DNA from: an uncultured delta proteobacterium
GTDB lineage: Bacteria; Desulfobacterota; Binatia; JACPRU01
Assembly (NCBI GenBank): GCA_963708955.1
Contig: CAVPWJ010000057.1
Coordinates: 1 to 56,238, forward strand
Length of the DNA: 56,238 nt
Reading direction: 5' to 3'
Shown here: positions 15,812-44,300 of the stretch, piece by piece
Numbering within the stretch: position 1 is the stretch's first letter
Layout: every line of letters starts with the position of its first letter
Notes under the pieces: generated by a model
The model's input: only the letters and a program-made list of their open reading frames with translations
What the model was told of the DNA's origin: nothing
Database searches by the model: none
Program-made: the position numbers and the translations under genes

Positions 15812-15883
15812 AGGCGGCGTCCGGAATTGAACCGGAGTAAGAGGTTTTGCAGACCTCTGCCTGAACCACTCGGCCACGCCGCC
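15812..15883 (-). tRNA. tRNA-Cys (anticodon GCA)
   Basis: Minus strand reads GGCGGCGTGGCCGAGTGGTTCAGGCAGAGGTCTGCAAAACCTCTTACTCCGGTTCAATTCCGGACGCCGCCT and was folded by hand. Acceptor stem is 7 bp (GGCGGCG/CGCCGCC). Anticodon stem is GAGGT/ACCTC with loop CTGCAAA. T-arm is TCCGG-TTCAATT-CCGGA. Discriminator is U. CCA is not encoded. Confidence 0.85.
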
Positions 15884-29167: not shown

Positions 29168-29257
29168 CCGCCAGAGCAGGCGGCAACGAGAAAGCAGCTT
29201 GCCGAGGCCTCGAATCTCAAATCTTCGTGTGAAACGGCGAAATCCTGCCGTAGTAGA
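29168..29257. repeat. Copy A of a diverged direct repeat (conserved non-coding segment downstream of a crotonase-like gene relic)
   Basis: Copy A reads CCGCC-agagca-GGCGG..CAACGAG..TGCCGAGGCCTCGAATCTCAAATCTTCGTGTGAAACGGCGAAATCCTGCCGTAGTAG. It aligns with 44075-44167 in the same orientation. The last ~60 nt are roughly 80 percent identical by eye. Confidence 0.6.
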
Positions 29258-29934: not shown

Positions 29935-30220
29935 GATCGTGCGCGAGAAGACGCGGCCGGCATCGGGTGCGCTGAGGTGAGCATCGAAAACCATCGCCGC
30001 GTGCGATCGCCGCGTAATAGGCCTGCAAGGGGCGGAAATTCTGGGCGTACGCCCCCTGGACGTCGCTGATCCCGGTCACGCCGAAGGCGACCACATCGGT
30101 CGCGGGCTGCGTCGTGTAACCCTGGAAGTTGCGGCGCAGTCGACGATCGTCCTGCGCGCGAGCGAGCTCGTCGCTCGGCAGAGCGAAGTGATCCATGCCG
30201 ATCGAGCGATATCCGGCGCA
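29935..30220 (-). pseudogene. hemN: Oxygen-independent coproporphyrinogen III oxidase (HemN) internal fragment
   Basis: The minus strand encodes AGYRSIGMDHFALPSDELARAQDDRRLRRNFQGYTTQPATDVVAFGVTGISDVQGAYAQNFRPLQAYYAAIARGD. This resembles the region following the radical-SAM core of HemN. There is no radical-SAM N-terminal part, the reading frame decays after ~29990, and there is no start codon. It begins ~30 nt after the stop of the neighbouring amidohydrolase gene. Confidence 0.6.
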
Positions 30221-30249
30221 CCCTTGGCCAATGGCCTCTGGGCTGCGCC

Positions 30250-31380
30250 TTACAGCTTGTGAATCCTGACCGCGTTGTCGCCGAGCACCTTGCGCATGGC
30301 ATCTTCCGAAAGCGGTTGCTCGCGAACCTCTGCCACCGCCCCCGGAAAGACCGCGTCGAAATGCGGGAAGTCGGAGGCCCAGACGACGCGGTCCTCCCCA
30401 ACTAGGTCGACGGTGAAAGGCAGCGTCCGCTCGTCCGGATCCACGGAGATATGGCACTGGCGCTTGAAGTATTCGCTCGGCTTCATCCGGAGATGCGGAA
30501 CTATGAATCCGAGCTTCTCGTAGTGGCTGTCGAGACGGTCCAACCACGCCGGCAACCACCCGCCGCCCGATTCGTAGAATCCCACCTTGAGCCGCGGAAA
30601 ACGTTCCAGGACTCCGCCCGCGATCAATTGCATCAGCGCGATCTGTTGCTCGTGCGGGTGCGAGATCATGTGCGCGAAGAAAAAGTTCGTGCAGCGCTCG
30701 ATGCCCGCCGTCGGCATGTTGCGAGTCGTGGCCTCGTGGACGCACACCGGCACATCGAGATCCTGAATACACGCCCAGAACCGGTCATATGCGGGGTCGT
30801 CGAGGTTCCGGCCCTTGTACGGATTCGGTCGAATCATCACGCCTCGCATGCCGAGCTTGCCCACCGCCCGTTGTGCCTCGGCGATCGCGGCATCGATGTC
30901 TTGCATCGGCATCACCGCCACTCCAATCAGCCGACTGGAGTACGGCTTGCAATAGTCCTCCGCGAGCCAGTCGTTGTAGGCGCGGCACAGCGCCGCCGCG
31001 AGTCCCTCATCTTCGATACCTCCGAAAAAGAGCCCGACTCCCGGGAAGAGGACCACGACTTCGATCCCGTCGGTGTCCAGGTCGCGGATGCGGGCGTGCG
31101 GATCGTAGCCTCCGGGCGAAGCGTCCGCATACGATGTCGTATGCCGGAGAACGGGGTCCGCCAGTCCGCCGGGAATCATCGCGGCCCCCACACTGAACGG
31201 AGGCCGCACGCCGAGTGGCTTGCCGCCCACCATCAGCCATTCGTTCCCTTCCTTGTCGCGACCCAAGTCCGGCGCCAGGCGACGATACTTCGATTCCAGA
31301 TGCTCTGGGCACATTTTCACTGGCTCGACCACGTGTCCGTCAGCGTCGACGATGAATTTCGGTTGGTTCCTCGAAGCCAT
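30250..31380 (-). CDS. Amidohydrolase_2 family metal-dependent hydrolase/decarboxylase
   Basis: ATG at 31380 preceded by AGGAGG. N-terminal metal motif is FIVDADGHVVEP. C-terminal motif is VWASDFPHFD. Same family pattern as the ACMSD/LigW/LigI-type enzymes. Confidence 0.85.
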   Translation of the reverse strand: MASRNQPKFIVDADGHVVEPVKMCPEHLESKYRRLAPDLGRDKEGNEWLMVGGKPLGVRPPFSVGAAMIPGGLADPVLRHTTSYADASPGGYDPHARIRDLDTDGIEVVVLFPGVGLFFGGIEDEGLAAALCRAYNDWLAEDYCKPYSSRLIGVAVMPMQDIDAAIAEAQRAVGKLGMRGVMIRPNPYKGRNLDDPAYDRFWACIQDLDVPVCVHEATTRNMPTAGIERCTNFFFAHMISHPHEQQIALMQLIAGGVLERFPRLKVGFYESGGGWLPAWLDRLDSHYEKLGFIVPHLRMKPSEYFKRQCHISVDPDERTLPFTVDLVGEDRVVWASDFPHFDAVFPGAVAEVREQPLSEDAMRKVLGDNAVRIHKL

Positions 31381-31433
31381 TGGAGCTCCTCCTTTCCGTA
31401 CGCCGTTTGACCCGAAACGTTCGAGGCTAGCCG

Positions 31434-32516
31434 TCAACTCTTACTCAGCTCTGCGTCCAACGTAGGACGAACCCGATCGGCAAACAGCTCCAGTGTGCGC
31501 ATGCGATGTTCGTGATTCTCGTTCAATAGGAAGAAGAGGTAACGCCCGACCTTCATTCGCCTTAGGAAATCAAGGCTACGAGCGGTGACCGACTCCGCCG
31601 TGCCGAAATACGTGGCACGCTCGTTCATGTAATCATAGGTGATCTTTTCCGCGGGAATGACGGGCTCGCCCGGGCGAGCAATCGTCACGTTAAACCCGTG
31701 CTCGCTGAAGTAATACGCAAAGCTCGTCATGAATTCTTCCATGTGATCGCGGGCCTGCGCTTCGGAATCGGCAACGTACGTCGGGATGCCCACGAGAATG
31801 TCGTCCGGACCGACGGCCCACCCCGCCTCCTCGGCCGTCTTCCGGTAGATTCCGATGAATTTGGCCAAGTACTCTTCCGAGGCGAACGCAAAAAGACCCT
31901 TCATCCTGTAACGAGCCGCGATCCGCGCGCTGGTCTCACTGGAGATCGCCAGCCACAGCGGCATGGTCGGTCTCTGGTAGGGGCGTGGAATGGTGGTTAT
32001 TTGCGGTGCGGGAGCTTTACCTGCCGGCACGTTGAAGAATTTGCCGGCATGAGAGAACTTCTCATTGCGGAGGGCTTTGATGACGACATCCAGGGTTTCG
32101 GCGGAAAGGGCGCGCCCTTCCGCATCGGGAAGCATGACTTCAAACCCATCCAGCTCATAGCGATTGTAGCCGCGCCCGACGCCAAACTCCACTCGCCCCC
32201 GACTCAGGTGATCCACCAGGCATATATCTTCAGCCAAGCGGACTGGATTCCACTGGGGCAGGATCGCGACCGCCGTCCCGAGGCGAATGCGACTGGTCAC
32301 GCCCGCCAGGTAGGCCAGGAAGAGAACGGGATTCGGCATGATCTCCCAGCCTACCTCCTGAAAATGATGCTCGCCCCACCAATAAGTATCGTAGCCGAGC
32401 TCCTCGCAGCGGGTCACTTCACTCACGCTCTGCTGGATACGCCGTTGGTACCGCTCGGAATTCATGGCGGCAGTTCGATCGCTGAGAACGTCAAACACAT
32501 CAATCTTCAGTTTCAT
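31434..32516 (-). CDS. Luciferase-like (LLM class) flavin/F420-dependent oxidoreductase
   Basis: GYDTYWWGEHHF.., ..IRLGTAVAILPQWNPVRLAEDICLVDHLSRGRVEFGVGRGY.. are typical of the LLM TIM barrel. Confidence 0.85.
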   Translation of the reverse strand: MKLKIDVFDVLSDRTAAMNSERYQRRIQQSVSEVTRCEELGYDTYWWGEHHFQEVGWEIMPNPVLFLAYLAGVTSRIRLGTAVAILPQWNPVRLAEDICLVDHLSRGRVEFGVGRGYNRYELDGFEVMLPDAEGRALSAETLDVVIKALRNEKFSHAGKFFNVPAGKAPAPQITTIPRPYQRPTMPLWLAISSETSARIAARYRMKGLFAFASEEYLAKFIGIYRKTAEEAGWAVGPDDILVGIPTYVADSEAQARDHMEEFMTSFAYYFSEHGFNVTIARPGEPVIPAEKITYDYMNERATYFGTAESVTARSLDFLRRMKVGRYLFFLLNENHEHRMRTLELFADRVRPTLDAELSKS

Positions 32517-32572
32517 GTCTTCAAGTCACTTCCCTGTGCGTCACTTCCGTTCCGCGTTACGTGAGCCCTAAT

Positions 32573-33697
32573 TTAGACGTTGTAGTACTTGGCCGCGTTT
32601 GCGCCGAGAACCTTGTTGATGGACTCTTCCGGCAAGCCGGCGAGGTACTTGCGGGTCGTGGCCACGGGTTGCGGGAATCCTTCTCCATGGGGGTAGTCGG
32701 AGCCCATGAAGAACTTGTCGTCTCCCACAACCTGCATCACGTGGGGAAGCATTTTTTCCGCCGGGTCGCATGAGATCCAAATGTTCCGATTGAAATAATC
32801 CGTCGCGGGCATCTTCATCTGCGAGTGATGGCCCTGATACCCGAAATGGTAGTCCATTCTCTCGAGCCACTCACCGACCCATCCAGACTTCGCTTCCACC
32901 GTCGCGACGCGAATCCTCGGGAAGCGCTCGAACACGCCGTCGAACATCATCGACGTGAGCGCCAATCGCGGCTCCTGCGGGAGATTCACCGAGAGATACA
33001 TCATCCCAGGGGTCTTGTCCCGGTACCAAGCCGTTCCCGCGTAGTCCAAGTGAAAGCTGATGTGGACGCTGACGGCGATATTCAAGTCCTGCGCGGCAGC
33101 CCAAATCGGATCATAATCGGGGTGCCCGAAGCTCTTTCCACCGACGGGGATCGCCGCGATGAACGCGGTACGAGCCCCCAGCTTCGCGACTCGCTGAAGC
33201 TCCTTTACGGCAAGCGCCGGGTCGCGCATTGACAGATGGGCGCCTGGAAACATCCGGTCCTTATAGCCCGCCACCATCTCAAATGCCCAGGTGTTGTACG
33301 CGCGACAATGTGCGTCGGCCAAAACCGGATCGCTGACCAGTGTTTCCCAGAGAATTGCCATGGTCGGATAGATGATCTGAGCATCGATCTTCTCGTGATC
33401 CATGAACTCGATCCGTTTCCCCATGTCCTGCCACTCGGGACTGAGCAGGGCGTTCTCGTCGAACTGGTCCCACTTCTCTCCCTTTTCCTTCTTCCCATAG
33501 GCAGCCAGGTCGCCGAACAGCGGGCCGAGCAGATACTCGGGCAACGGCTTTCCATCCGCCGCTATGGTGTGGGAGCCGGTATCGGGATCCACTCTGAAAC
33601 TGACTGCGCGGTCCCGAAACTTAGAATCGATGCGCTTCTCCCAAAGATTCAAGGGCTCCAGAAAATGGCTATCGCCGTCTATAATTCTGAGACTCAT
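32573..33697 (-). CDS. Amidohydrolase_2 family protein
   Basis: MSLRIIDGDSHFLEP at the N-terminus and FFMGSDYPHGEG near the C-terminus. Paralogous pattern to 30250..31380 and 33771..34874. Confidence 0.85.
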   Translation of the reverse strand: MSLRIIDGDSHFLEPLNLWEKRIDSKFRDRAVSFRVDPDTGSHTIAADGKPLPEYLLGPLFGDLAAYGKKEKGEKWDQFDENALLSPEWQDMGKRIEFMDHEKIDAQIIYPTMAILWETLVSDPVLADAHCRAYNTWAFEMVAGYKDRMFPGAHLSMRDPALAVKELQRVAKLGARTAFIAAIPVGGKSFGHPDYDPIWAAAQDLNIAVSVHISFHLDYAGTAWYRDKTPGMMYLSVNLPQEPRLALTSMMFDGVFERFPRIRVATVEAKSGWVGEWLERMDYHFGYQGHHSQMKMPATDYFNRNIWISCDPAEKMLPHVMQVVGDDKFFMGSDYPHGEGFPQPVATTRKYLAGLPEESINKVLGANAAKYYNV

Positions 33698-33770
33698 AAC
33701 AAACTCGCCCCCGCATTTTGCCTGTTTGGTCTATTTCTATATCCAGAGGAACACAGGCGTGACCCTAGTC

Positions 33771-34874
33771 TTAGATTCGGAAATACCGTGCGGCGTTGTC
33801 TCCGAGAACCTTCGCTTTCTGCGCATCGGAAACCCCCGGCTTTTTACGGATATCAGCGAGCGCGTCTCCGACGTCGTCAGCGTCCCAGTGAGGGTAATCG
33901 GATGCCCAGAGGATCTGGTCTTCTCCGGCAACGCGGATCGCTTCCGGAATCCAGTTATCTTCGCCTTCACAGGAAAAGTAGAGTTGGCCGGACTGGATAT
34001 ATTCCGACACGGGGCGCTTCCGCCCGAATGGCAGCGGATAGGGCATCTTCAGTTGGCTTTGTAGGCGATCCCTCCAGAAGCCAATCCAGCCAACGCCAGA
34101 CTCCATGAAACCGACCCGCAGCTTGGGAAACTTGTCGAGCACGCCGCCGTAGATCAGCCGCCCGAGGGCCAACATGTTGTCGAACGGGAAGGCAGCCGCG
34201 TGCATCAACGGGAACATGTCATTGAGCATATCCCCTCCGGCCGTATCCGGGACGGCAATCGCCGAATCGTGAATCGAAGCCGGAACATCGAGATCCTGGA
34301 GCGTTTCCCAAAGTGGATAGAAGTACTCAGAATCGAGTGTCTTACCCAACACACCATGCATGCTGGGGGCGATCACGACCCCGATGGCCCCTTTCTTCCC
34401 CACCGCCTCGCGGGCGATCTTTACCGAAGCATCCATATCGTGGAGGGGAACGTAGGCGAGCCACTTCATGCGATCCGGAGCGGTCGAGCAATACTCGGCG
34501 ACCCATTTGTTGTATGCGTTACACATCGCGCCAGCCAGCCCGCCATCTTTGATGGTATTGAGGCCGGCCATCAATCCTCCGAAGACAACCGCGATGTCGA
34601 TACCCGACTCATTCATGTCCTTTAACCGAGCGTCGGGCTCGTTCCCACCGGGGCGGGTGTTGGCTAGCTCCATGAAATCAGGGAGATTCTTCGCACCCCA
34701 ATCACCCGCATTATACATATAGAACCGCTCCTCAACCATCCACAGCTCCTTACCCCAATTCCCTCGAATCAGGCGAGGACGCTGATTGCGGTAAGCCTTG
34801 TCCATGTACTCATCGAAAACCTTTTCGGTTTCCGTCACGTGACCGTCACAATCAATCACTTTTCCATGCGTCAT
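33771..34874 (-). CDS. Amidohydrolase_2 family protein
   Basis: MTHGKVIDCDGHVTET at the N-terminus and ILWASDYPHWD near the C-terminus. RBS GAAAGGAA. Confidence 0.85.
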   Translation of the reverse strand: MTHGKVIDCDGHVTETEKVFDEYMDKAYRNQRPRLIRGNWGKELWMVEERFYMYNAGDWGAKNLPDFMELANTRPGGNEPDARLKDMNESGIDIAVVFGGLMAGLNTIKDGGLAGAMCNAYNKWVAEYCSTAPDRMKWLAYVPLHDMDASVKIAREAVGKKGAIGVVIAPSMHGVLGKTLDSEYFYPLWETLQDLDVPASIHDSAIAVPDTAGGDMLNDMFPLMHAAAFPFDNMLALGRLIYGGVLDKFPKLRVGFMESGVGWIGFWRDRLQSQLKMPYPLPFGRKRPVSEYIQSGQLYFSCEGEDNWIPEAIRVAGEDQILWASDYPHWDADDVGDALADIRKKPGVSDAQKAKVLGDNAARYFRI

Positions 34875-34925
34875 GGTCGGGTTCCTTTCTCAAAAGCCGA
34901 GCCGCAATGGGCGGCACTAAAGTCT

Positions 34926-35978
34926 CTAGCCAACCAATACCTTCACCGCGGACTCATCCGAGCTGATGCACTCAAAGGCGCGGACAGTCTGGTCGAGCGG
35001 GAATCGATGAGAAATCATCGGCGGAGACTGAATGATCCCTTTCTCCAATAGGCGGAGAACGGCTTCCGAATCCGGGCCCAGCTTATATCCGCAGGATCCG
35101 AACACTGTGATGCCCTTCTCGACGATCCGAGACGGCACAAAGCTACTCGGCTTTTCGTGCATCGCTACCATGACGACCTTCCCACCCGGACGAACGAGGT
35201 CGACTGACATATCGAAGGTCGCCGGAACCCCGGCGCACTCGAATACAATGTCGGGCCCTCGATTCTTCCCACCTGCCTTAGCGATCAGTTCGGAAACGTT
35301 CCCTTCGCGGGGATCTAGCACGAGGTCTGCACCGCATGCCTTTGCGGCTGCCTGGCGCGCTTTCTTCACTTCGACCGAAACGATCAACCCCGCGCCCCGG
35401 GCCCGAAGGAACTGAATGATCCCGAGACCGATCTGGCCCGCGCCGAGAACGACAACGCGGTCCCCCGGCTGACTGGCGCCGAGAACCGTCGCCCGATAGC
35501 CGACGGATAACGGCTCAACCAAAGCTCCGTCCTCGAAATTCAGAGACGCAGGAATCGAAAATACGGTGAAGCCGAGCTGCGCACGGGGAACTTTGACTAG
35601 CTCGGCAAAGGCGCCGAGCGCCGAGCCGTAGCCAATGGCCCCGTCAATGGACGTGCCGCTGAACAACCCCTCGCAGAGATTTGCCTCCCCGCGACGACAC
35701 GACGCACAGGTCCGACACGGGACGATGGCCAAGCCGCAGAGCCGGTCTCCGACCTTGATGTCCGATACCTTGTTACCGACCGCGGTAACCTCCCCGCCGA
35801 ACTCATGCCCCATGACTTGACCCGGACATCCGTACCAACCCGCGTTGTAGGTGTGGACGTCTGAGCCGCAGATTCCGCAGGATTTCACCTTCATGACGAT
35901 ATCTTCGGCACCGGGAACCGGCTCCGGGATATCCTCAATCGTCATCTGTCGGATACCGTGATAGACCGCTGCTTTCAT
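34926..35978 (-). CDS. Zinc-dependent medium-chain alcohol dehydrogenase
   Basis: CGICGSDVH and GHEFGGEV catalytic-zinc motifs. Structural-zinc Cys cluster is CRTCASCRRGEANLC. Rossmann motif is VLGAGQIGLG. Confidence 0.85.
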   Translation of the reverse strand: MKAAVYHGIRQMTIEDIPEPVPGAEDIVMKVKSCGICGSDVHTYNAGWYGCPGQVMGHEFGGEVTAVGNKVSDIKVGDRLCGLAIVPCRTCASCRRGEANLCEGLFSGTSIDGAIGYGSALGAFAELVKVPRAQLGFTVFSIPASLNFEDGALVEPLSVGYRATVLGASQPGDRVVVLGAGQIGLGIIQFLRARGAGLIVSVEVKKARQAAAKACGADLVLDPREGNVSELIAKAGGKNRGPDIVFECAGVPATFDMSVDLVRPGGKVVMVAMHEKPSSFVPSRIVEKGITVFGSCGYKLGPDSEAVLRLLEKGIIQSPPMISHRFPLDQTVRAFECISSDESAVKVLVG

Positions 35979-35992
35979 CGTCTACGCCCTTT

Positions 35993-36445
35993 CTACTTGC
36001 CGTAAATTTCGATCATCGTCTTGTCCGGGTCGTAGAAACGAAAGACCTTGATTTTCCCATACGGCGCCATTTCATAAGTAATGGGAGGGCATGTGCACTC
36101 GACGCCTTTGGAAATCAACTCATCGTAGGTCTCTTGCGCATCCTTGACCCAAAAACCGACATGGGTCAGTCCTGGATGGTTCGACGGAACCGCCGATTTA
36201 CCCGCTCCATCCTTGAAGCACAGCAAGTCAAAGTGGGTTTTCTCTTCGCCACCGCACTTCATCAGGAGAGCTTGGTGTACCCCCTTGCCGTATGGAATCG
36301 CATTCAGATCATCAGCGCCACGGTCATCCACCGTGATCGGCTCACCCTCTTTTTCGAAACCAAGGATGTCATGGTACCACTGATAGGATTTCTCGAGATC
36401 CTTTACGACAACCGCAACATGCGAAAGTCTCGTCGTCATAATCAT
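35993..36445 (-). CDS. VOC (glyoxalase/bleomycin resistance/extradiol dioxygenase) family protein
   Basis: RLSHVAVVVKDLEKSYQWYHDILGF.. and ..GLTHVGFWVKDAQETYDEL.. form paired beta-alpha-beta-beta-beta modules. 150 aa. Confidence 0.8.
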   Translation of the reverse strand: MIMTTRLSHVAVVVKDLEKSYQWYHDILGFEKEGEPITVDDRGADDLNAIPYGKGVHQALLMKCGGEEKTHFDLLCFKDGAGKSAVPSNHPGLTHVGFWVKDAQETYDELISKGVECTCPPITYEMAPYGKIKVFRFYDPDKTMIEIYGK

Positions 36446-36501
36446 CCGACCAAACTCCTCTTAATGGTGTGACACTTCAGTTTCTTAGGATTTTCGTACT
36501 G

Positions 36502-36538
36502 TGTGGGGTATCGGCGGTCATCTAGCCGACACCCCACA
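36502..36538. terminator. 13-bp hairpin in the 124-nt gap between the LLM and VOC genes
   Basis: TGTGGGGT-a-TCGGC-ggtcatcta-GCCGA-c-ACCCCACA. The T-run follows on the plus strand only, so a role as terminator or attenuator of the minus-strand operon is uncertain. Confidence 0.4.
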
Positions 36539-36569
36539 TTTTCATTCGATTCGGACTCCGCTCTTTGGA

Positions 36570-37694
36570 TTACGCAGCACTGCGCAGAGTCTCGCCGGGC
36601 TTTTTCAACGTCGGCAGGACATGCTTGCCGTACAGGTCGATCGCCTTGAGAACCTTGGCGTTCTCCCCGTTCCCGAACTCGAACATTCCCAGCATCAGAT
36701 CGACGCCGATCTCCCTAAACGGCTTGAGCTGCTCGGCGCACTGATCCGGCGTGCCGACGATGATTCGATTCTTACTCTGCAACTCGTCAAACGTCAGCTT
36801 GTCCAAGCCGAGCGAGAACATCTTGTCCAGATACTTGAGGTTCTGCGGGCGCTCCTTGTGGAACCCTCTCTTCACGATCTCGATGGAGCTCTTCATGTAC
36901 CAAAGAATCAACTCCTCCGAGTCCTTGCGCGCCTGCGCGGCCGTCTCGGCCACGTGAACCGGAATCGCCGCGCCGATCTTGACCGACTTGGGATCATGCC
37001 CCGCGTCCGCAACCGCCTTGCGGAACTTCGCAATCCCATCCGCGAACGCATCCAGCGGCTGGAAGAACGAGAACGTCAACAGGCTCAACCCCATCTTCCC
37101 GATCAGTGAAGGCGTATCCGGCCCCAACGTCGCCACCCAAATCGGCGGGTGCGGCCGCTGCACCGGCTTCGGAACCACCTTGATCGGCTCCGTGATATTG
37201 TAGAATTGTCCCTTGTACGTGAAGTTGTCCTCACGCCAGCAGGTCTTGATGATCTCCAGATCCTCCGCCCAGCGCTCCCGGTTCTCCTGGTACGGGACTT
37301 CCATCGCATCGTAGTCGGCTCGGTGACCGCCACGGCCCGTGCCAAACTCCACCCGTCCGCCGGTCAGCTGATCCAACGTGGCAATCCGCTCCGCGGTCAT
37401 GATCGGATGCGCCAGCGGAAGCACGATCACTCCCGTGCCAAAGCGGATCTGCTTCGTTCGCCGCGCCAACGCCGAAAAGAACATCTCGGGCGCCGGCATG
37501 TGCGAGTGACCCGCCATGATGTGATGGTCAACCGACCACGCCGAGTGGAAACCGAGCTTGTCCGCGAGCTCAACCTGATCCATGCACTCCGAATACAGCT
37601 CGCCATCAGGCTTCGGCTTGCCCTTCAGCGGATTCGGGATCTCGCTGGTCTGTGGAGAAAGAAATTCAAAAAATAGCGCTGATTCCATAAGCAA
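36570..37694 (-). CDS. Luciferase-like (LLM class) flavin/F420-dependent oxidoreductase
   Basis: LGFHSAWSVDHH.., ..IRFGTGVIVLPLAHPIMTAERIATLDQLTGGRVEFGTGRGG... RBS AGGAGG lies 7 nt before the ATG. Confidence 0.85.
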   Translation of the reverse strand: MLMESALFFEFLSPQTSEIPNPLKGKPKPDGELYSECMDQVELADKLGFHSAWSVDHHIMAGHSHMPAPEMFFSALARRTKQIRFGTGVIVLPLAHPIMTAERIATLDQLTGGRVEFGTGRGGHRADYDAMEVPYQENRERWAEDLEIIKTCWREDNFTYKGQFYNITEPIKVVPKPVQRPHPPIWVATLGPDTPSLIGKMGLSLLTFSFFQPLDAFADGIAKFRKAVADAGHDPKSVKIGAAIPVHVAETAAQARKDSEELILWYMKSSIEIVKRGFHKERPQNLKYLDKMFSLGLDKLTFDELQSKNRIIVGTPDQCAEQLKPFREIGVDLMLGMFEFGNGENAKVLKAIDLYGKHVLPTLKKPGETLRSAA

Positions 37695-37820
37695 ACCTCC
37701 TATGTTCGAAGTACCACACGTTATTTGGCCTCCTATAGACCAGTTATTTCAAGAGGTAAACAAAAAAATTCTCCTAATTCTAGAAGTAAAAAAGCCTAAT
37801 ATATTCAAATATATACGGCC
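37695..37820 (-). promoter_or_regulatory. AT-rich spacer with candidate sigma70-type promoter for the LLM-to-amidohydrolase gene string
   Basis: Hand count gives 16/60 G+C for 37741-37800. On the minus strand, TTTACC (37760-37755), 17 nt and TATAGG (37737-37732) lie ~40 nt upstream of the ATG at 37694. Confidence 0.35.
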
Positions 37821-37978
37821 CTAGATTCCTCGAGACAGAGCAGCCTCAGGGCATCCGGGATTCCCGATTCCAAGGCGCGACGGGTCAGCCTTGGCGAGCG
37901 CGAGCTTCTCTTCGGAGAACATCTCGGGAAACCGCGGGCCAACGGACTCGGGAGTTCCGGCGATCATCTCGGCGACCG

Positions 37979-38776
37979 CTAGGCGACGAAACGGCTCCCC
38001 GCCGCTGGGGGATCGACGGGGGGGCCCGCGAAACACTGAGCGATGGACAGCCACCGGTTGGCTGCGTCACCGAGGACATGGAGCTTCGTATCCGCGATAT
38101 TTCGAACCTGCGTTACCACTTGGCAAAACTCGGCCGCCGAGCCCTCCACCCGGTTTTCCTCACTGGGCTCATTCCAAGTCCAGATCGCGCCGGAGGGTGC
38201 GGTGAGGCGAATGTGCGGAACTTCGGTCGGGACATCCAGTCCGCGGTTCGTGAAGGTCCAGCCGAAGGTATTCACGCCCAGTGTAACGATATTCTTGATG
38301 CGGTCGGTGTTGACTCGTTCGACCCCGAGCAGGTCGTATACCTCTTGACCATGTGCCCACGTTTCCATCAGGCGTGCGGTAATGCTTGAGCGAACGCTCA
38401 TATCCGGCCCGGCCCAGGCCACCCGCCCTTTCGGGTCGGCCTCGCAAAACCGCCCGCACATATCGAGGAAGAAATCACGCCACTGTTCGAGAAGGGGGTG
38501 GTTCTTGACTCCGCCGAGCCATTGCCCTTCGAACTCTGAGATCGGTCGGCCTTTCGAGAAGCCCTCGAACGCGCGAGCCAGAAACTTGCCGAAGTCATCC
38601 CGGCTTTTCAGCGACAGGTCGGCAGCCCAATTCCACATGTGCAGGTGCCCCAAGACATTGTTGATCGTCCAACCCTTGAACTGGGTCGGGCGCTCGAAGT
38701 CTGCATCCTTCAGGGGTTTGAGAAGCTGGTACAGCGCTTCGCTTTCGTCACGGAAATCGATGGGCTGCTGAAACAT
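37979..38776 (-). CDS. DinB-like / maleylpyruvate-isomerase N-terminal-domain family protein (TIGR03083/03084-like)
   Basis: 265 aa. KGWTINNVLGHLHMWNWAADL is a DinB-type metal-ligand His region. ..SITARLMETWAHGQEVYDLLG.. and ..AAEFCQVVTQVRN.. also fit. Family recognised from memory, not searched. Confidence 0.65.
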   Translation of the reverse strand: MFQQPIDFRDESEALYQLLKPLKDADFERPTQFKGWTINNVLGHLHMWNWAADLSLKSRDDFGKFLARAFEGFSKGRPISEFEGQWLGGVKNHPLLEQWRDFFLDMCGRFCEADPKGRVAWAGPDMSVRSSITARLMETWAHGQEVYDLLGVERVNTDRIKNIVTLGVNTFGWTFTNRGLDVPTEVPHIRLTAPSGAIWTWNEPSEENRVEGSAAEFCQVVTQVRNIADTKLHVLGDAANRWLSIAQCFAGPPVDPPAAGSRFVA

Positions 38777-38815
38777 TTCGTCAAGTCTCCCCTCTCGCTC
38801 GTGAGCCGACCGCGA

Positions 38816-40807
38816 TCAGTCTTCCGCGACGTCGATCCCGAGGATTCGATCGTTTCCCGCGACCTGGTCGCCCGGTTTTCGAAAGATCTCCCGAACAACG
38901 CCATCGACTCTGGCGGTGATTTCGTGTTGCATTTTCATCGCCTCGAGCACCGCCAGGCGATCTCCTTTCCGAACCGGGCTCCCCTCAGTCACGAGAATCT
39001 CCAACAACCGGCCGTGCATTGGCGCAACGATGCTCCCGCTGCCAGCGGATTCTCCCATGTCGGCGATCAAGCCGATGCGGTTGCGAAAAGAGAAGGCCCG
39101 TCCATCCATCGACAAGTGAATCTGTCGGGGATCGGGAATATAGCTCAGGATCTGCCTTCTGGAATCGCCAACGAACACTTCCGCCAGAACGGAATCTTGG
39201 CTCAAGACTCTGACGACGATCTGTTCGCCTCCCTGACTGACGGCGTACTCGCTCCGGCTCAGCGGAGAAACGGTCAAATCGAAGTTGGTGTCTCCAACGT
39301 CATAGAGATACCGGCTCATCAACTGTCCGGAGCTTCTCCAGTTCTTCAGTTCCTCCGCAACCGAGACCGCGCGCGCCGATGCCGTCTCTCGTGCTTCGCA
39401 GTAGTGGAGCACCGCCGCGGCGGCAGCCTGTTCCAGCGTCGGTTGCGTATTCTTCAGGTCGACTTCGGAGAACTCCTCGGGGATGAACGCAGTCGTCGCT
39501 CCGCCCCGAGCAAAGGTGTCCCGGCCGAGCGCGGCGATCAGGAAGTCCCGGTTCGACCGGGGTCCGAAAAGCGCCGTATCCCTGAGCGCCCTGAGCAGGC
39601 GGCCGCGGCTGATTTCCCTTGTCTCTCCCCAGGCGATGATCTTTGCGAGCATTGGGTCGTAGAAGGGCGAGATCTCGAGGCCGGTCTCGATGCCGGCGTC
39701 GACCCGAATTCCCTCACCGCTCGGGGGACGCCAGAGATCGATCCTGCCGGTGCTTGGTAAGAAGTCCCGGGCGGGATCCTCGGCATACAGGCGGATCTCG
39801 ATCGCGTGGCCCTTCAGGGAAACGTCGGCCTGCGAGAGACCCAGCGGCTCGCCCCGGGCGATTGCGATCTGGAGAGCCACGAGATCGAGACCGGTGATCA
39901 ACTCGGTGACGGGGTGCTCGACCTGAAGCCGGGTGTTCATTTCGAGGAAGTAGAACTCGCCGCTCGGGTCGAGGAGGAATTCCACCGTCCCGGCCCCACG
40001 ATAAGCGATGCTTCGTGCCGCTTCGACGGCAGCCCCCCCCATCCTGGCGCGCAGCTCCGGTGTCATGACCGGGCAGGGAGCTTCCTCGATGACTTTTTGG
40101 TGGCGGCGCTGGACGGAGCAGTCGCGCTCGCCGAGATAGATCACGTTGCCGTGAGTGTCCGCGACGATCTGAATCTCGACGTGGCGAGGCCGAAGAATCG
40201 CCTTCTCGAGGATAAGCTCTCCGGAGCCGAAAGCGTTCTCGGCCTCCGACCGCGCAAGCTTCAGCGCTGCGGGGAGATCCCCGGGAGCCGTCACGAGCCG
40301 CATGCCGCGCCCACCGCCCCCGGCCGCGGCCTTGACCATGACCGGAAAACCGATCCCCTGAGCGGCTTTCCGGAATACGGCCTCGGATTGATCCTTGCCC
40401 TCGTATCCCGGCACGCATGGGACCCCCGCTTCGATCATTCTTCTCTTCGCCTCGGCCTTGTTGCCCATCGCATCGATGGCATCCGCCGTTGGGCCGATGA
40501 AGGTCAGCCCCGCCGCTTCGCAAGCGCGCGCAAAACCGGCGTTCTCGGACAGGAAGCCGTAGCCCGGATGAATGGCTTCGGCGCCGGTCTTCCTGGCGGC
40601 GGCCAGGATACGGTCGACGTTGAGATACGATTCCCCAACCGGAGGCGGACCGATCAGGGCCGCGTCATCGGCGGCCTTCACGTGGGGCGCTGCCCAGTCG
40701 GCTTCGGAATACACGGCGATGGATCGATACCCCAGCGCCTTGGCGGTCCGCATGACGCGAACGGCAATCTCTCCTCGGTTTGCTACGAGAATACTTCTGA
40801 AAGACAT
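38816..40807 (-). CDS. Acyl-CoA carboxylase alpha subunit (biotin carboxylase + biotin carboxyl carrier domain)
   Basis: N-terminus is MSFRSILVANRGEIAVRVMRTAKALG. ATP-grasp part has GFPVMVKAAAGGGGRGMR and EMNTRLQVEHPVTE. C-terminal biotinylation motif is LEAMKMQHEI. Confidence 0.9.
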   Translation of the reverse strand: MSFRSILVANRGEIAVRVMRTAKALGYRSIAVYSEADWAAPHVKAADDAALIGPPPVGESYLNVDRILAAARKTGAEAIHPGYGFLSENAGFARACEAAGLTFIGPTADAIDAMGNKAEAKRRMIEAGVPCVPGYEGKDQSEAVFRKAAQGIGFPVMVKAAAGGGGRGMRLVTAPGDLPAALKLARSEAENAFGSGELILEKAILRPRHVEIQIVADTHGNVIYLGERDCSVQRRHQKVIEEAPCPVMTPELRARMGGAAVEAARSIAYRGAGTVEFLLDPSGEFYFLEMNTRLQVEHPVTELITGLDLVALQIAIARGEPLGLSQADVSLKGHAIEIRLYAEDPARDFLPSTGRIDLWRPPSGEGIRVDAGIETGLEISPFYDPMLAKIIAWGETREISRGRLLRALRDTALFGPRSNRDFLIAALGRDTFARGGATTAFIPEEFSEVDLKNTQPTLEQAAAAAVLHYCEARETASARAVSVAEELKNWRSSGQLMSRYLYDVGDTNFDLTVSPLSRSEYAVSQGGEQIVVRVLSQDSVLAEVFVGDSRRQILSYIPDPRQIHLSMDGRAFSFRNRIGLIADMGESAGSGSIVAPMHGRLLEILVTEGSPVRKGDRLAVLEAMKMQHEITARVDGVVREIFRKPGDQVAGNDRILGIDVAED

Positions 40808-40900
40808 CGAGTTCGACTCTCCTCGCTCGTCTCAATTCGAAAGCCAGTAGGGCTCCCGGAGCTCGGTCGCGGGTATGGGGAGCATCGGGTATTCCTCCCG

Positions 40901-42523
40901 CTACATTCTCGCAATGCCGAAGCTGTTGGGCCGAAGCGTGCGGTGGCGACTCTCCCAACAAGTTTCCAGGGCGAAGCCGAGGACCTTGCGCGTATCCCGC
41001 GGATCGATGATCCCGTGATCCAGAGCGCGCCCCGATGTGTAGAAAGCATTCGACTGGGCGTCGTAGTGCTTGATGATGGCTTCTTTCTGCGCCGCCAAAG
41101 CCTCTTCGTCCACTTTCGTTCCACGCCGCTCGGCGGAATTCCGCATCACTTGCTCCATGGTGAGGGCGGCTTGCTCGCCTCCCATGACACCTGTCGTCGC
41201 GTTGGGCCAGGCGAACAAGAAGTCCGGCTTATACGCGTAACCGCACATGCCGTAATTCCCCGCTCCGAAGCTCGCGCCGATATACAGCGAGATCCGGGGA
41301 ACGGAAACGTTCGAGACCGCCTGAATCATCTTGGAGCCGTGCTTGATCATCCCGGCTTGCTCGTATTGCGTCCCCACCATGTAGCCGGTGGTATTGTTCA
41401 GCAGGATCAACGGCAGGTTCGATTGGTCGCAGAGCTGGAAGAACTGAGCGGCCTTCGCCGCACCGTTCGGATCGATTGGCCCGTTGTTGCCGATGATTCC
41501 ACAGGTCTGTCCGAAAATGTCCGCGTGCAGGCAGACCGTGGCTGGGCCGAAGCGAGACTTGAACTCGATGAACTCGGAGCCGTCGACGATGCGGGCGACG
41601 ACTTCGCGGACGTCGTACGGCTTCTTGTAGTCGACCGGCACGATGCCGGCGATCTCATCGGCGCTGTAGATCGGTTCCTTGAAGGTTTTTCGCGGAGGAA
41701 TCTCGCAGTGGACGTTCCAAGCGAGCTGCCCCATCAGATCCCGGGCGATCTGGACACCATGCGCATCGTCCTCGGCGAGATACTCGACGAGACCGGAAAC
41801 CGATGAATGCATCTCGGCGCCGCCAAGTTGCTGCTCGTCCGCAATCTCTCCCGTTGCCGCCCGCACGAGTGCCGCCCCGGCCAGCGCCGCCATGCCGTTC
41901 TTCTTCACGCCAATCACGAAATCGCTCATGCCGGGTTGGTACGCGCCGCCTGCCGTGGACGGTCCATGCAGCACGACGAACGTGGGGATTCCGGCGGAGC
42001 TCAGGCGAGCCAGGCCATAGAACATGCCTCCACCGTTCGCCCACATCTCGACCGTGTAGGCCATGAGATTCGCGCCGGCGCTTTCCACCAAATGAATGAC
42101 GGGGAGCTTGTGATTGAGGGCGAGGGCGAGGCATCCAAGGAACTTGTCGCAGGTTTCCGTGGTTACGGCACCCGCGTTGATGCCGCTGTCGTCGACGACG
42201 AGCATGCAGCGCGCGCCGTTGACGAAACCGATGCCGGTGATGAGGCTGGCCCCGGGGATGCTCGTGTCGGGGTTCGGATCGTCGACGAGATAGCTCACCA
42301 TGTTGTAGATCTCGAGAAAGGGCATTCCCGGATCGAGCAGCCGCAATAGCCGCTCACGAGGCGTGAGTTGGCCACGCTCGTCGAACCGGGGCCGGCGACG
42401 CTCGGAAAGCGTAGTGGCACGGCCTTCCAGCTCGCGAAGTTTTCTCACCCGGCCGAGCATGTCCGCCCGGTGGGTGGCGAAGGTGCCTGAGCTTGTTTCA
42501 ATCTTTGAGCGAAAAACGTTCAT
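40901..42523 (-). CDS. Acyl-CoA carboxylase carboxyltransferase (beta) subunit, MCC/GCC-like
   Basis: 540 aa. ..ERGQLTPRERLLRLLDPGMPFLEI.., ..VVDDSGINAGAVT.., ..HGPSTAGGAYQPGMSD.., ..LYIGASFGAGNYGMCG.., ..AWPNATTGVMGGEQAA.. together indicate duplicated crotonase-fold CT domains. Confidence 0.9.
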   Translation of the reverse strand: MNVFRSKIETSSGTFATHRADMLGRVRKLRELEGRATTLSERRRPRFDERGQLTPRERLLRLLDPGMPFLEIYNMVSYLVDDPNPDTSIPGASLITGIGFVNGARCMLVVDDSGINAGAVTTETCDKFLGCLALALNHKLPVIHLVESAGANLMAYTVEMWANGGGMFYGLARLSSAGIPTFVVLHGPSTAGGAYQPGMSDFVIGVKKNGMAALAGAALVRAATGEIADEQQLGGAEMHSSVSGLVEYLAEDDAHGVQIARDLMGQLAWNVHCEIPPRKTFKEPIYSADEIAGIVPVDYKKPYDVREVVARIVDGSEFIEFKSRFGPATVCLHADIFGQTCGIIGNNGPIDPNGAAKAAQFFQLCDQSNLPLILLNNTTGYMVGTQYEQAGMIKHGSKMIQAVSNVSVPRISLYIGASFGAGNYGMCGYAYKPDFLFAWPNATTGVMGGEQAALTMEQVMRNSAERRGTKVDEEALAAQKEAIIKHYDAQSNAFYTSGRALDHGIIDPRDTRKVLGFALETCWESRHRTLRPNSFGIARM

Positions 42524-42615
42524 TGGACTGACTCGGCCATTTCTCTCGGGATCGAGATGGGGACGTCGCGCTTGGGAATCAGGAACGAGAAGATAGGAAT
42601 CATCTTTTCGGACAT
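42520..42615 (-). CDS. Candidate 31-aa small ORF translationally coupled (ATGA) to the carboxyltransferase gene
   Basis: Hand translation gives MSEKMIPIFSFLIPKRDVPISIPREMAESVQ*. Its TGA (42522-42520) overlaps the ATG (42523-42521) of the next gene. AAGGGAAA lies upstream. Below the ORF-track length cutoff. Confidence 0.3.
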   Translation of the reverse strand: MSEKMIPIFSFLIPKRDVPISIPREMAESVQ

Positions 42616-42699
42616 CTTTACGTTTCCCTTACAACCGCAGTGATTGCTGCCGGGTGAACATTCGCCGTCTCGGTGGCATGTCTCCGCCGAAGTGGATCA

Positions 42700-42862
42700 C
42701 GAACCGGTGGTCGCACTCAAGGGGGCGAAATGCCTCGGCCGGTGATACTCGTCTGACCGTATACAAAAAATCCGGCCGGCTCGGCAAGGAAGGCGATCTC
42801 TTCCGGCCGATGCCGCGAGAGCCGCCCGTCACCAAAGCAACCGGCGTCGTTCGCTCCGCCAT
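42700..42862 (-). pseudogene. Short-chain dehydrogenase/reductase (SDR) 5' relic, frameshifted and 3'-truncated
   Basis: GGAGG-6 nt-ATG at 42862, then MAERTTPVALVTGGSRGIGR (the TGxxxGIG cofactor motif). The continuation EIAFLAEPAGFFVYGQTSITGRG is in another frame and stops. No catalytic YxxxK region follows. Confidence 0.5.
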
Positions 42863-42864
42863 CG

Positions 42865-42996
42865 TCAACCTCCGGCATCGACTTCGAGACCAAGATCTTC
42901 GTTCTTGTAGACCGTGCCGGCGATCCCGCCTCCCATGCCCGCATTGAAAATCGGCAGCTCGATCCCCAGATCGGCGCACGGCGCCGTCTTCGACAT
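42865..42996 (-). pseudogene. Nitronate monooxygenase (NMO/FabK-like) N-terminal relic
   Basis: GGGGAGG-7 nt-ATG at 42996, then MSKTAPCADLGIELPIFNAGMGGGIAGTV. This resembles the NMO N-terminal FMN-binding motif (..PIIQAPM.GG..). It runs into a stop after 43 codons. Confidence 0.45.
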
Positions 42997-44074: not shown

Positions 44075-44167
44075 GCGGCTTCGCAGCCGCAACCAAGCGA
44101 CGGTAGTCTGCTGAGGCCTCGTATCTCATACTTCTTCGTGTGCAGCCGCGAAATTCTGCCGTAGTAG
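44075..44167. repeat. Copy B of the diverged direct repeat
   Basis: Copy B reads GCGGCT-tcgc-AGCCGC..AACCAAG..TGCTGAGGCCTCGTATCTCATACTTCTTCGTGTGCAGCCGCGAAATTCTGCCGTAGTAG. It has the same order and orientation as 29168-29257. Confidence 0.6.
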
Positions 44168-44300
44168 CTAGAGGCCGGTGAAGTTCAGCTTTCGCTTATC
44201 GAGGAAAGCTGCCATCGCCTCCTTCAGATCGCCGCTGTTCAGAAACGGGACGAGCAGCAGGAAGATCACGAACCCGACTCGCTGGCGCATGTCGAGAGGC
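44168..44300 (-). pseudogene. Enoyl-CoA hydratase/crotonase C-terminal relic
   Basis: The minus strand ends in ..FLNSGDLKEAMAAFLDKRKLNFTGL*. This resembles the canonical crotonase C-terminus (..D..EG..AF.EKR.P.F.G). There is no crotonase core upstream. Confidence 0.45.

Follow-up and report, generated by a model that had tools for sequence, protein, structure and literature searches.

How did a run of co-directional genes for a biotin-dependent carboxylase, luciferase-like flavin monooxygenases (LLMs) and supposed amidohydrolases come to lie in the genome of an uncultured delta proteobacterium (GTDB lineage Bacteria; Desulfobacterota; Binatia; JACPRU01), and what could such a combination of enzymes achieve? 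The genes are found in contig CAVPWJ010000057.1 of assembly GCA_963708955.1, of which positions 1 to 56,238 (56,238 nucleotides; hereafter the window) were analysed, and had been described in an original prediction as a foreign island of eleven genes at 30250-42615 that matched no nameable pathway. Here, we show that the block is a horizontally acquired insertion that replaced ~5.9 kb of ancestral DNA. With moderate confidence, we propose that it is a mosaic catabolic island in which an operon of amidohydrolase-related dinuclear oxygenases (AROs) and LLMs, together with a carboxylase of the geranyl-CoA carboxylase (GCC) type, would funnel a methyl-branched, isoprenoid-like compound into β-oxidation. 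The island thus probably encodes a route, not characterised so far, by which branched, terpene-like compounds would be oxidised.

The question of origin is answered by comparison with a related genome. JACPRU010000071.1, a contig of the metagenome-assembled genome GCA_016189835.1 ('Deltaproteobacteria bacterium', G+C 0.714; hereafter L099), encodes a homologue, 86% identical, of the 334-aa membrane protein whose gene borders the block on its right side. The right flank of the window is collinear with L099 at 83-86% DNA identity, from downstream of the bactofilin gene through those for lipid A acyltransferase and a 1358-aa protein to the 334-aa gene; the end of the argininosuccinate synthase gene provides a separate, non-contiguous match. 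Past the 334-aa gene, L099 continues with NMO-SDR-nitroreductase-MOSC-IspD-like-HemN where the window has the island. The window retains only the first ~27 codons of the NMO gene (right junction, 42912..42996, minus strand), with DNA identity to L099 stopping near 42912, and at the left junction an internal fragment of hemN (30032..30218, minus strand), a 187-nt piece of 73 codons that covers profile positions 279-351 of 454 (TIGR00538, NCBIfam, E 2e-24). A possible remnant of an SDR N-terminus (..VALVTGGSRGIG.., 42776..42841, minus strand) is weak, at E about 0.1. Pfam profiles recognised none of the hemN, NMO and SDR stubs, the first being identified through NCBIfam and the second through the DNA of L099. 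The 12.7 kb between the NMO stub and the hemN piece has no similarity to L099, which carries 5.9 kb of other genes there. Given truncated host genes at both edges and a collinear relative with different genes between them, the island is an insertion that replaced its host locus, and the removed stretch is best explained as having run from NMO, most of which is gone, into hemN, which lost its 5' part. The island thus extends from about 30219 to 42911 (about 12.7 kb; no strand assigned).

The foreign character of the block, claimed originally from its composition, is therefore borne out by a real insertion, and composition itself agrees. G+C is 0.593 inside the island versus 0.677 in the rest of the window; in 1-kb steps it falls from ~0.68 to 0.535-0.60 over 31-39 kb and 0.61-0.64 over 39-43 kb, most other steps lying at 0.65-0.73. 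Windows of 4 kb wholly within the block (n=4) have a mean G+C of 0.587 versus 0.678 +/- 0.016 in the host (n=19), about 5.7 standard deviations (SD) lower, and their tetranucleotide-usage correlation with the host is 0.762 versus 0.898 +/- 0.040 for host 4-kb windows (3.4 SD). At third codon positions, G+C is 0.61-0.81 in the block genes versus 0.83-0.93 in most flanking genes. The DNA around related copies of island genes has a G+C of 0.52-0.585. Of the six 60-nt hand counts on which the first impression was based, four proved exact and two were off by one.

What, then, does the island encode? It holds ten intact, co-directional open reading frames (ORFs), all on the minus strand and all full length relative to their homologues, with catalytic motifs kept. 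No eleventh real gene was found; the end previously given as 42615 coincides with a 31-aa ORF (42520-42615) that overlaps the start of the carboxyltransferase (CT) gene and is the probable 'eleventh gene'. Profile searches (Pfam/NCBIfam) upheld the domains assigned before, namely a carboxylase pair, a DinB-like protein, two LLMs, three amidohydrolase_2 (PF04909) proteins, an alcohol dehydrogenase (ADH) and a VOC protein. The earlier view that the block is not a lig-type operon is also supported, and no regulator, transporter, integrase or transposase was found in the block, as had been noted.

The reading of the block turns on its three PF04909 proteins, A1 (30250..31437, with a true start possibly at the ATG at 31380), A2 (32573..33697) and A3 (33771..34874), for which Pfam E-values are 7e-40, 2e-27 and 9e-38. 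AROs, founded on PtmU3, DitZ, AibH2 and SfbO, are distinguished within PF04909 by an N-terminal D-x-H and a C-terminal D-x-P-H-x-D/E preceded by ~200 or more residues (PMC13154177). Both motifs are present in all three proteins: DGH at 33 and DFPHFD at 356 in A1, DSH at 9 and DYPHGE at 334 in A2, and DGH at 10 and DYPHWD at 326 in A3. In alignments with 10 and 57 homologues, there is no variation in the Asp and His of D-x-H, in one His and one Glu of the mid-barrel, or in the Asp and His of the loop. For A3 the mid-barrel ligands are His202 and Glu258, whose equivalence to His211 and Glu265 of AibH2 is by order and spacing rather than superposition; the AibH2 ligands include His27, His211, Glu265, Asp337 and His340, with the second-sphere Asp342 marking binuclear members (PMC7782822). 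The site of SfbO comprises three His and three carboxylates (PMC10811679), and by alignment A1, A2 and A3 retain this full ligand set.

Sequence matches to solved structures point the same way, the best match of each protein being PtmU3 or DitZ, 15-20 orders of magnitude ahead for A1 and A2. A1 matches PtmU3 (6OMP) at 1.4e-44 and DitZ (8UYR) at 3.3e-31 versus 2e-25 for ACMSD, and A2 matches PtmU3 at 2e-36 and 4DZI at 3.6e-35 versus about 1e-13 for decarboxylases. With the ARO motifs and the complete ligand set in all three, A1, A2 and A3 are, rather than decarboxylases or lactonases, most likely O2-dependent hydroxylases. Because this signature runs through the trio, and PtmU3 and DitZ are the nearest solved structures, the block appears to be oxygenase-centred, with up to five oxygenases.

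The metal content of these sites can be predicted in part. A2 looks to be of the diiron type, having Ser in D-x-H, which we take as γ-1, a non-aromatic γ-4 residue and a terminal Glu like PtmU3. A1 and A3 combine Gly in D-x-H (non-hydrophobic, again taken as γ-1, and presumably classed as hydrophilic by the octanol scale of the predictor) with an aromatic γ-4; with predictor residues mixed in this way, their metal preference is not callable from the published table. No Rieske ferredoxin lies beside the AROs in the island. As diiron-type AROs mostly lack Rieske partners in their neighbourhood, these being typical of the Mn-type subgroup only (PMC13154177), this is not disqualifying.

The second half of the island is the carboxylase unit, CT-BC/BCCP-TIGR03084. 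The CT β subunit (40901..42523, 540 aa) scores 584 bits against P. aeruginosa GCC-β, 455 against MCC-β and 445 or less against PCC-named entries. Published rules hold that PCC-β lacks the N-terminal helix (~30 residues), that MCC-β has Phe191 after a 3-residue insertion and that GCC-β has Gly162 and no insertion (PMC4673880). In our alignment, Gly164 of CT stands in the column of GCC Gly162 and MCC Phe191, the 3-residue MCC insertion is absent, and the N-terminal helix is present, residue 5 onwards of CT aligning to residue 4 of GCC. By these residues, CT is of the GCC type. As a separate observation, the CTs of other Atu-like clusters (L002 17706-19334; L094 6132-7790; L097 3569-5167) have Ala or Thr at the gate column, not Phe; that of the metagenomic contigs L002/L003 is otherwise MCC-like (59% identical to PaMCC-β, with the 3-residue insertion), yet has a small gate residue. 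The α subunit (38816..40807, 663 aa) has the BC-BT-BCCP domains, BT weakly (E 1.6e-4), and the biotinylation motif AMKM at 623.

Downstream lies a TIGR03084-family DinB/MDMPI_N metal-binding protein (37979..38776; 296.9 bits, NCBIfam cut-off 247.95), a family on which we found no literature. In four of five other contexts, it is encoded in or beside Atu-like clusters. The closest relative, L093, has CT-BC-TIGR03084 with DNA 84.6% identical to the window; L094 has AtuA-BC-CT facing ECH-NMO-TIGR03084-LLM, where ECH denotes enoyl-CoA hydratase; the Rhodococcus plasmid pRZP2 has CT-BC-ECH-TIGR03084-AtuA-acyl-CoA dehydrogenase-CoA ligase-TetR; and a Mycolicibacterium (M. chubuense) plasmid has LLM...ECH-TIGR03084-AtuA. 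The fifth, L096, has TIGR03084 without a carboxylase nearby. The plasmid search (tblastn) gave distant matches only, at most 38%, and served the TIGR03084 contexts rather than the AROs. As these contexts are consistent, the carboxylase unit is thus predicted to be the core of an Atu-like cluster.

The oxygenase unit, in the order LLM-VOC-ADH-ARO-ARO-LLM-ARO, begins with L2 (36570..37688), an LLM that in NCBIfam comes closest to the MupA/Atu3671 'secondary-metabolite' LLM family, though below its cut-off. The TTG start listed for L2 was rejected as wrong, the real start being the ATG at 37688, which is preceded by AGGAGG. L2 is followed by a small VOC/glyoxalase-fold protein (35993..36445, 150 aa), assigned by a profile match that reached no specific family, by a Zn-dependent medium-chain ADH resembling threonine and polyol dehydrogenases (34926..35978, GHE at 57), by A3 and A2, by the second LLM, L1 (31434..32516), which lies below every NCBIfam subfamily cut-off, and by A1, whose start overlaps L1 by 4 nt. 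A spacer of ~290 nt (37689..37978, minus strand; 284 nt if the listed ORF is used) separates the stop of TIGR03084 from the corrected start of L2; its core is very AT-rich, and it contains a palindrome, ATATATTTGAATATAT, at about 37790-37815. This spacer is likely the promoter or operator of the oxygenase operon, and together with the Shine-Dalgarno sequence and ATG of L2 it suggests two transcription units. Good matches to σ54 promoters precede the L2 orthologues in L003 (~6866-6881, TGGCATGGAAGTTGCC) and L005 (~8732-8747, TGGCCTTGAACTTGCT). None was found in the spacer of the window, matches across the window as a whole being at chance level, and scans for σ70 promoters and terminators did not rise above shuffles. 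The window copy has apparently lost this σ54 arrangement.

The core of this unit is not peculiar to the window. Among 5.8 billion proteins, the close relatives of A3 form four clusters of 59-83% identity, and the conserved core LLM-(VOC-ADH)-ARO-ARO is found again in four further sets of metagenomic contigs. In L002-L004 (JGI 3300027968), L2-VOC-ADH-A3-A2 (55-68% identity) is followed by DUF1329-MaoC-AtuA-ECH-CT-BC-BCCP and preceded by P450-MarR-P450-MFS with insertion-sequence (IS) remnants, including rve/HTH_Tnp fragments upstream of L2 (L002/L003 5466-6616). L005 has a MimR-like σ54 activator followed by L2-A3-A2', another ARO and an LLM; L089 has L2-A3-A2-ARO-LLM; and L092 has transposase-VOC-A3-A2 (83-90% identity) with no ADH between VOC and A3, the C-terminus of an rve-type transposase (..WYNTGRPHQALGYKSP.., L092 1-153) lying directly upstream of VOC. 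More distant A2-like, A2-like and A3-like genes occur in L090 with an epoxide hydrolase, Amidohydro_3 and 2-oxoacid dehydrogenase E1/E2. We also observed that Logan contig L001 (run ERR12036780), from the same run as L090, carries an ADH gene 99.9% DNA-identical to that of the window.

Beyond these contigs, similarity declines. GTDB species representatives contain no A3 homologue above 40% identity, and the 80 loci with more distant AROs taken from them (L009-L088) show no orthologous synteny. In this set, 94 of 111 PF04909-like ORFs have the D-x-P-H-x-D/E loop, and an LLM lies within 35 bp of an ARO in 11 loci where LLM density predicts about 2-3; the 11, several of which come from related lineages, span Acidimicrobiia, Rokubacteria, Alphaproteobacteria and 'delta proteobacteria'. 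A further candidate, P0009 (42% identical), was set aside since its context is an unrelated amino-acid-type locus. No characterised operon with the gene order of the island, which would have spoken against its novelty, was found in the literature, of which subscription papers were only partly covered. The components all belong to known families; their combination and order match nothing characterised that we found.

How might these parts work together? We infer a sequence of reactions in which the three AROs, with dinuclear (Fe/Fe or Mn/Fe) centres, would hydroxylate unactivated C-H bonds with O2, as characterised members are all O2-dependent oxygenases. DitZ is described as a diterpenoid hydroxylase, and PtmU3 accepts CoA-bound diterpenoid substrates (PMC7782822). 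The polyol/threonine-dehydrogenase-like Zn-ADH would oxidise the alcohol so formed to a carbonyl, both flavin-dependent LLMs may introduce further oxygen through hydroxylation or Baeyer-Villiger-type insertion, and the VOC protein, the weakest of these assignments, might isomerise or epimerise an intermediate. The compound would probably be handled as a CoA thioester and, if the two units are functionally coupled, the carboxylase, as a γ-carboxylating acyl-CoA carboxylase with a large geranyl-CoA-type pocket, would allow β-oxidation to proceed past a 3-methyl branch that otherwise blocks it. The CoA ligase, dehydrogenase, hydratase, lyase and flavin reductase would have to be encoded at other sites in the genome. 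Our best guess for the substrate is a branched or isoprenoid acyl-CoA, because CT is of the GCC type and TIGR03084 keeps Atu-like company, and because of the context in L003 and the nearest characterised AROs. The terpenoid-like link suggested in the original prediction is plausible on the first three of these grounds, the substrate itself being hypothetical. A bolder version, which we regard as quite unlikely, is that LLM-ARO-ARO forms a new multicomponent oxygenase, an AibH1H2-like heteromer in which both ARO subunits are binuclear and the LLM is an obligate partner; the LLM would hand over an oxygenated intermediate or reducing equivalents to the Rieske-less AROs and, with the GCC-type carboxylase, serve an undescribed aerobic route for terpenoids or quaternary carbons.

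A number of observations weigh against the proposal of a coupled catabolic island. The block has no AtuA, acyl-CoA dehydrogenase, intact hydratase, lyase or CoA ligase, which had already been recognised as setting it apart from a canonical liu/atu cluster, and the island has neither flavin reductase nor ferredoxin; it therefore cannot run the pathway alone. Nor do AtuA, AtuD, AtuE, a CoA ligase or a lyase occur anywhere in the window, which has only the 3' remnant of a host ECH gene at 44175-44247. For A3 the margin among solved structures is small (PtmU3 9e-20 versus 8.5e-18 for γ-resorcylate decarboxylase), and Foldseek with its AlphaFold (AF2) model gives no separation (DitZ 1.0e-18, ACMSD 1.3e-18, PtmU3 2.9e-18). 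AROs act on amino acids, sulfonates and diterpenoids, a diversity such that family membership does not fix the substrate. Finally, each unit has its own spacer or promoter, G+C differs slightly between the units (0.619 versus 0.573), the carboxylase beside the module in L003 is non-orthologous (38% identity, MCC-like), and in L093 the gene after TIGR03084 is not L2 but one for a methyltransferase, in convergent orientation.

The last four points also favour the main rival explanation, that an Atu-type carboxylase core and an ARO/LLM operon are unrelated modules joined by recombination or IS activity, their adjacency having no pathway meaning. In keeping with this, the oxygenase genes of L092 are cut by the transposase, and L005 and L089 carry the oxygenase core with no carboxylase in the available sequence. 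Set against it are the arrival of both units in one 12.7-kb replacement, the position of the oxygenase core next to an independent Atu-like carboxylase cluster in L002-L004, the succession of TIGR03084 and LLM in L094, and the LLM within the M. chubuense cluster. Furthermore, the closest relatives of the two units, L092 and L093, share one sample (JGI 3300040954) and show similar divergence. An association of carboxylase and oxygenase genes elsewhere, the lack of which would by the original prediction have pointed to a chance juxtaposition, is seen in L002-L004, albeit with a carboxylase that is not orthologous. On balance, we consider chance adjacency unlikely, while acknowledging it as a serious competitor.

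The model first put forward for the trio, in which non-oxidative decarboxylases, lactonases or hydratases would form a (de)carboxylation-centred route, is improbable. PF04909 does include such enzymes, ACMSD and the γ-resorcylate and 5-carboxyvanillate decarboxylases being among the PDB matches, and the ACMSD-type fold is as close as DitZ to the A3 model (pLDDT 92), whose top fold matches are all PF04909 structures. Since Foldseek does not split AROs from ACMSD-type decarboxylases, the assignment rests on the ligand motifs rather than the fold. Characterised PF04909 hydrolases and decarboxylases have N-terminal motifs other than D-x-H, and the D-x-P-H-x-D/E loop is reported absent from every one of them (PMC13154177); the extra acidic residue is, furthermore, tied to binuclear centres (PMC7782822). 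A1-A3 do not have the motif pattern of the mononuclear ACMSD, LigW, LigI and LigJ-type enzymes, and all three have both ARO motifs and PtmU3 or DitZ as best solved match, so the decarboxylase model is disfavoured relative to the oxygenase-centred one.

It might also be asked whether the island is a decaying, non-functional relic, as the gene stubs at both edges, the missing partner genes, the want of a regulator and the absence from the window of the σ54 promoter of L2 orthologues would suggest; with ten full-length ORFs and catalytic motifs kept, we think this very improbable. Least probable of all is that the block serves a natural-product pathway through tailoring or precursor supply, for which the roles of PtmU3 and several other AROs in biosynthetic clusters and the sub-threshold MupA/Atu3671 match of L2 could be cited, given that the 56-kb window contains no polyketide synthase, nonribosomal peptide synthetase, terpene synthase or other core biosynthetic gene and that related loci have the catabolic-type genes AtuA, ECH, MaoC, P450, MFS, σ54 activator and 2-oxoacid dehydrogenase.

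Returning to the acquired catabolic island, its surroundings record further change. Neither an integrase nor a tRNA was found at its borders, the sole tRNA of the window, and the only match in an Rfam scan of it, being tRNA-Cys at 15812-15883. A 56-nt direct repeat on the plus strand (left copy 29203..29256, right copy 44112..44167; ~86% identical, the 3' end, ...GCCGTAGTAG, being sharp) encloses a 14.9-kb segment that is larger than the island and takes in RlpA and the 334-aa gene as well. An interpretation as att sites was rejected as unproven because the enclosed host-like RlpA and 334-aa genes are collinear with L099. The ECH/334-aa intergenic region of L099 measures 33 nt and lacks the right copy, which in the window is additional DNA. 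The repeat has no Rfam family match and gave no hits in a metagenome scan, and may be a small mobile element or a rearrangement scar. A second difference from L099 lies beside the right copy: between 44175 and 44363 of the window (L099 8159-9960), an SDR gene and most of ECH are gone (~1.7 kb), the last ~24 codons of the hydratase remaining at 44175-44247.

The flanks mark the host as a Gram-negative bacterium of ~68% G+C related to GCA_016189835.1, encoding a cyclic-glucan-synthase-like protein as well as an AcrB pump, RlpA, lipid A acyltransferase and bactofilin. The first of these proteins has 2921 aa and is GH94/cyclic β-1,2-glucan-synthase-like (4117-12882). A 1361-aa protein at 44417-48502 has no Pfam or NCBIfam match, and its L099 counterpart, of 1358 aa, is ~83% identical in DNA. 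A 578-aa ORF at 615-2351, 28 kb from the island, shows weak similarity to IS1380/DDE transposases (NCBIfam E 1.9e-11).

These findings have implications beyond a single contig. AROs are a recently recognised superfamily of ~17,000 sequences, nearly all annotated 'amidohydrolase', and a handful have known substrates (PMC13154177). In the island, three AROs come with a pair of flavin monooxygenases, a terpene-type carboxylase and an ADH as a compact, mobile set that is amenable to experiment and whose close relatives are confined to a few metagenomic contigs. Its study could bring to light C-H hydroxylations of branched aliphatic compounds not seen before, show which proteins act as the missing partners or electron donors of AROs that lack a Rieske component, and provide an entry to the apparent partnership of such AROs with LLMs. 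It also illustrates how the Pfam name 'amidohydrolase', used as an annotation, can misdirect pathway inference, and documents how a catabolic cassette took the place of resident genes in an uncultured lineage of groundwater type.

How does the island compare with known systems? The camphor route proceeds through a hydroxylase (P450cam), the Zn-ADH CamD and LLM-type Baeyer-Villiger diketocamphane monooxygenases, and the island likewise combines C-H hydroxylases with a Zn-ADH and LLM monooxygenases. This is an analogy only, since the hydroxylases of the island are AROs rather than P450cam and homology to the cam LLMs is evident at family level only. With AtuC/AtuF of the Pseudomonas atu cluster (PMC4673880), the island shares the Gly gate, the lack of the MCC insertion, the N-terminal helix and a BC-BT-BCCP subunit with AMKM; its CT is, however, only about 48-55% identical to PaGCC-β, and AtuA, AtuB, AtuD, AtuE, AtuG, AtuH and a regulator are missing. 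To our knowledge, the TIGR03084 protein of the island has no counterpart in the Pseudomonas cluster. The actinobacterial Atu-like clusters of Rhodococcus sp. ZPP pRZP2 and M. chubuense NBB4 pMYCCH.01, known from annotation only, have CT-BC and TIGR03084 in common with the island and, in some, LLM and P450s nearby. Unlike the island, they additionally have ECH, AtuA, acyl-CoA dehydrogenase, CoA ligase and TetR; their TIGR03084 proteins are 35-38% identical to that of the island, and there is no ARO trio. To characterised AROs, A1-A3 are at most about 25-35% identical, yet they share the PF04909 TIM barrel, D-x-H, D-x-P-H-x-D/E and the full ligand set. The adjacent genes for A3 and A2 recall the paralogue pair AibH1-AibH2, although both A3 and A2 have the ligands for a binuclear site where AibH1 is mononuclear. 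The island differs from characterised ARO systems in having no Rieske ferredoxin or reductase nearby and in bringing three AROs together in one operon, interleaved with two LLMs.

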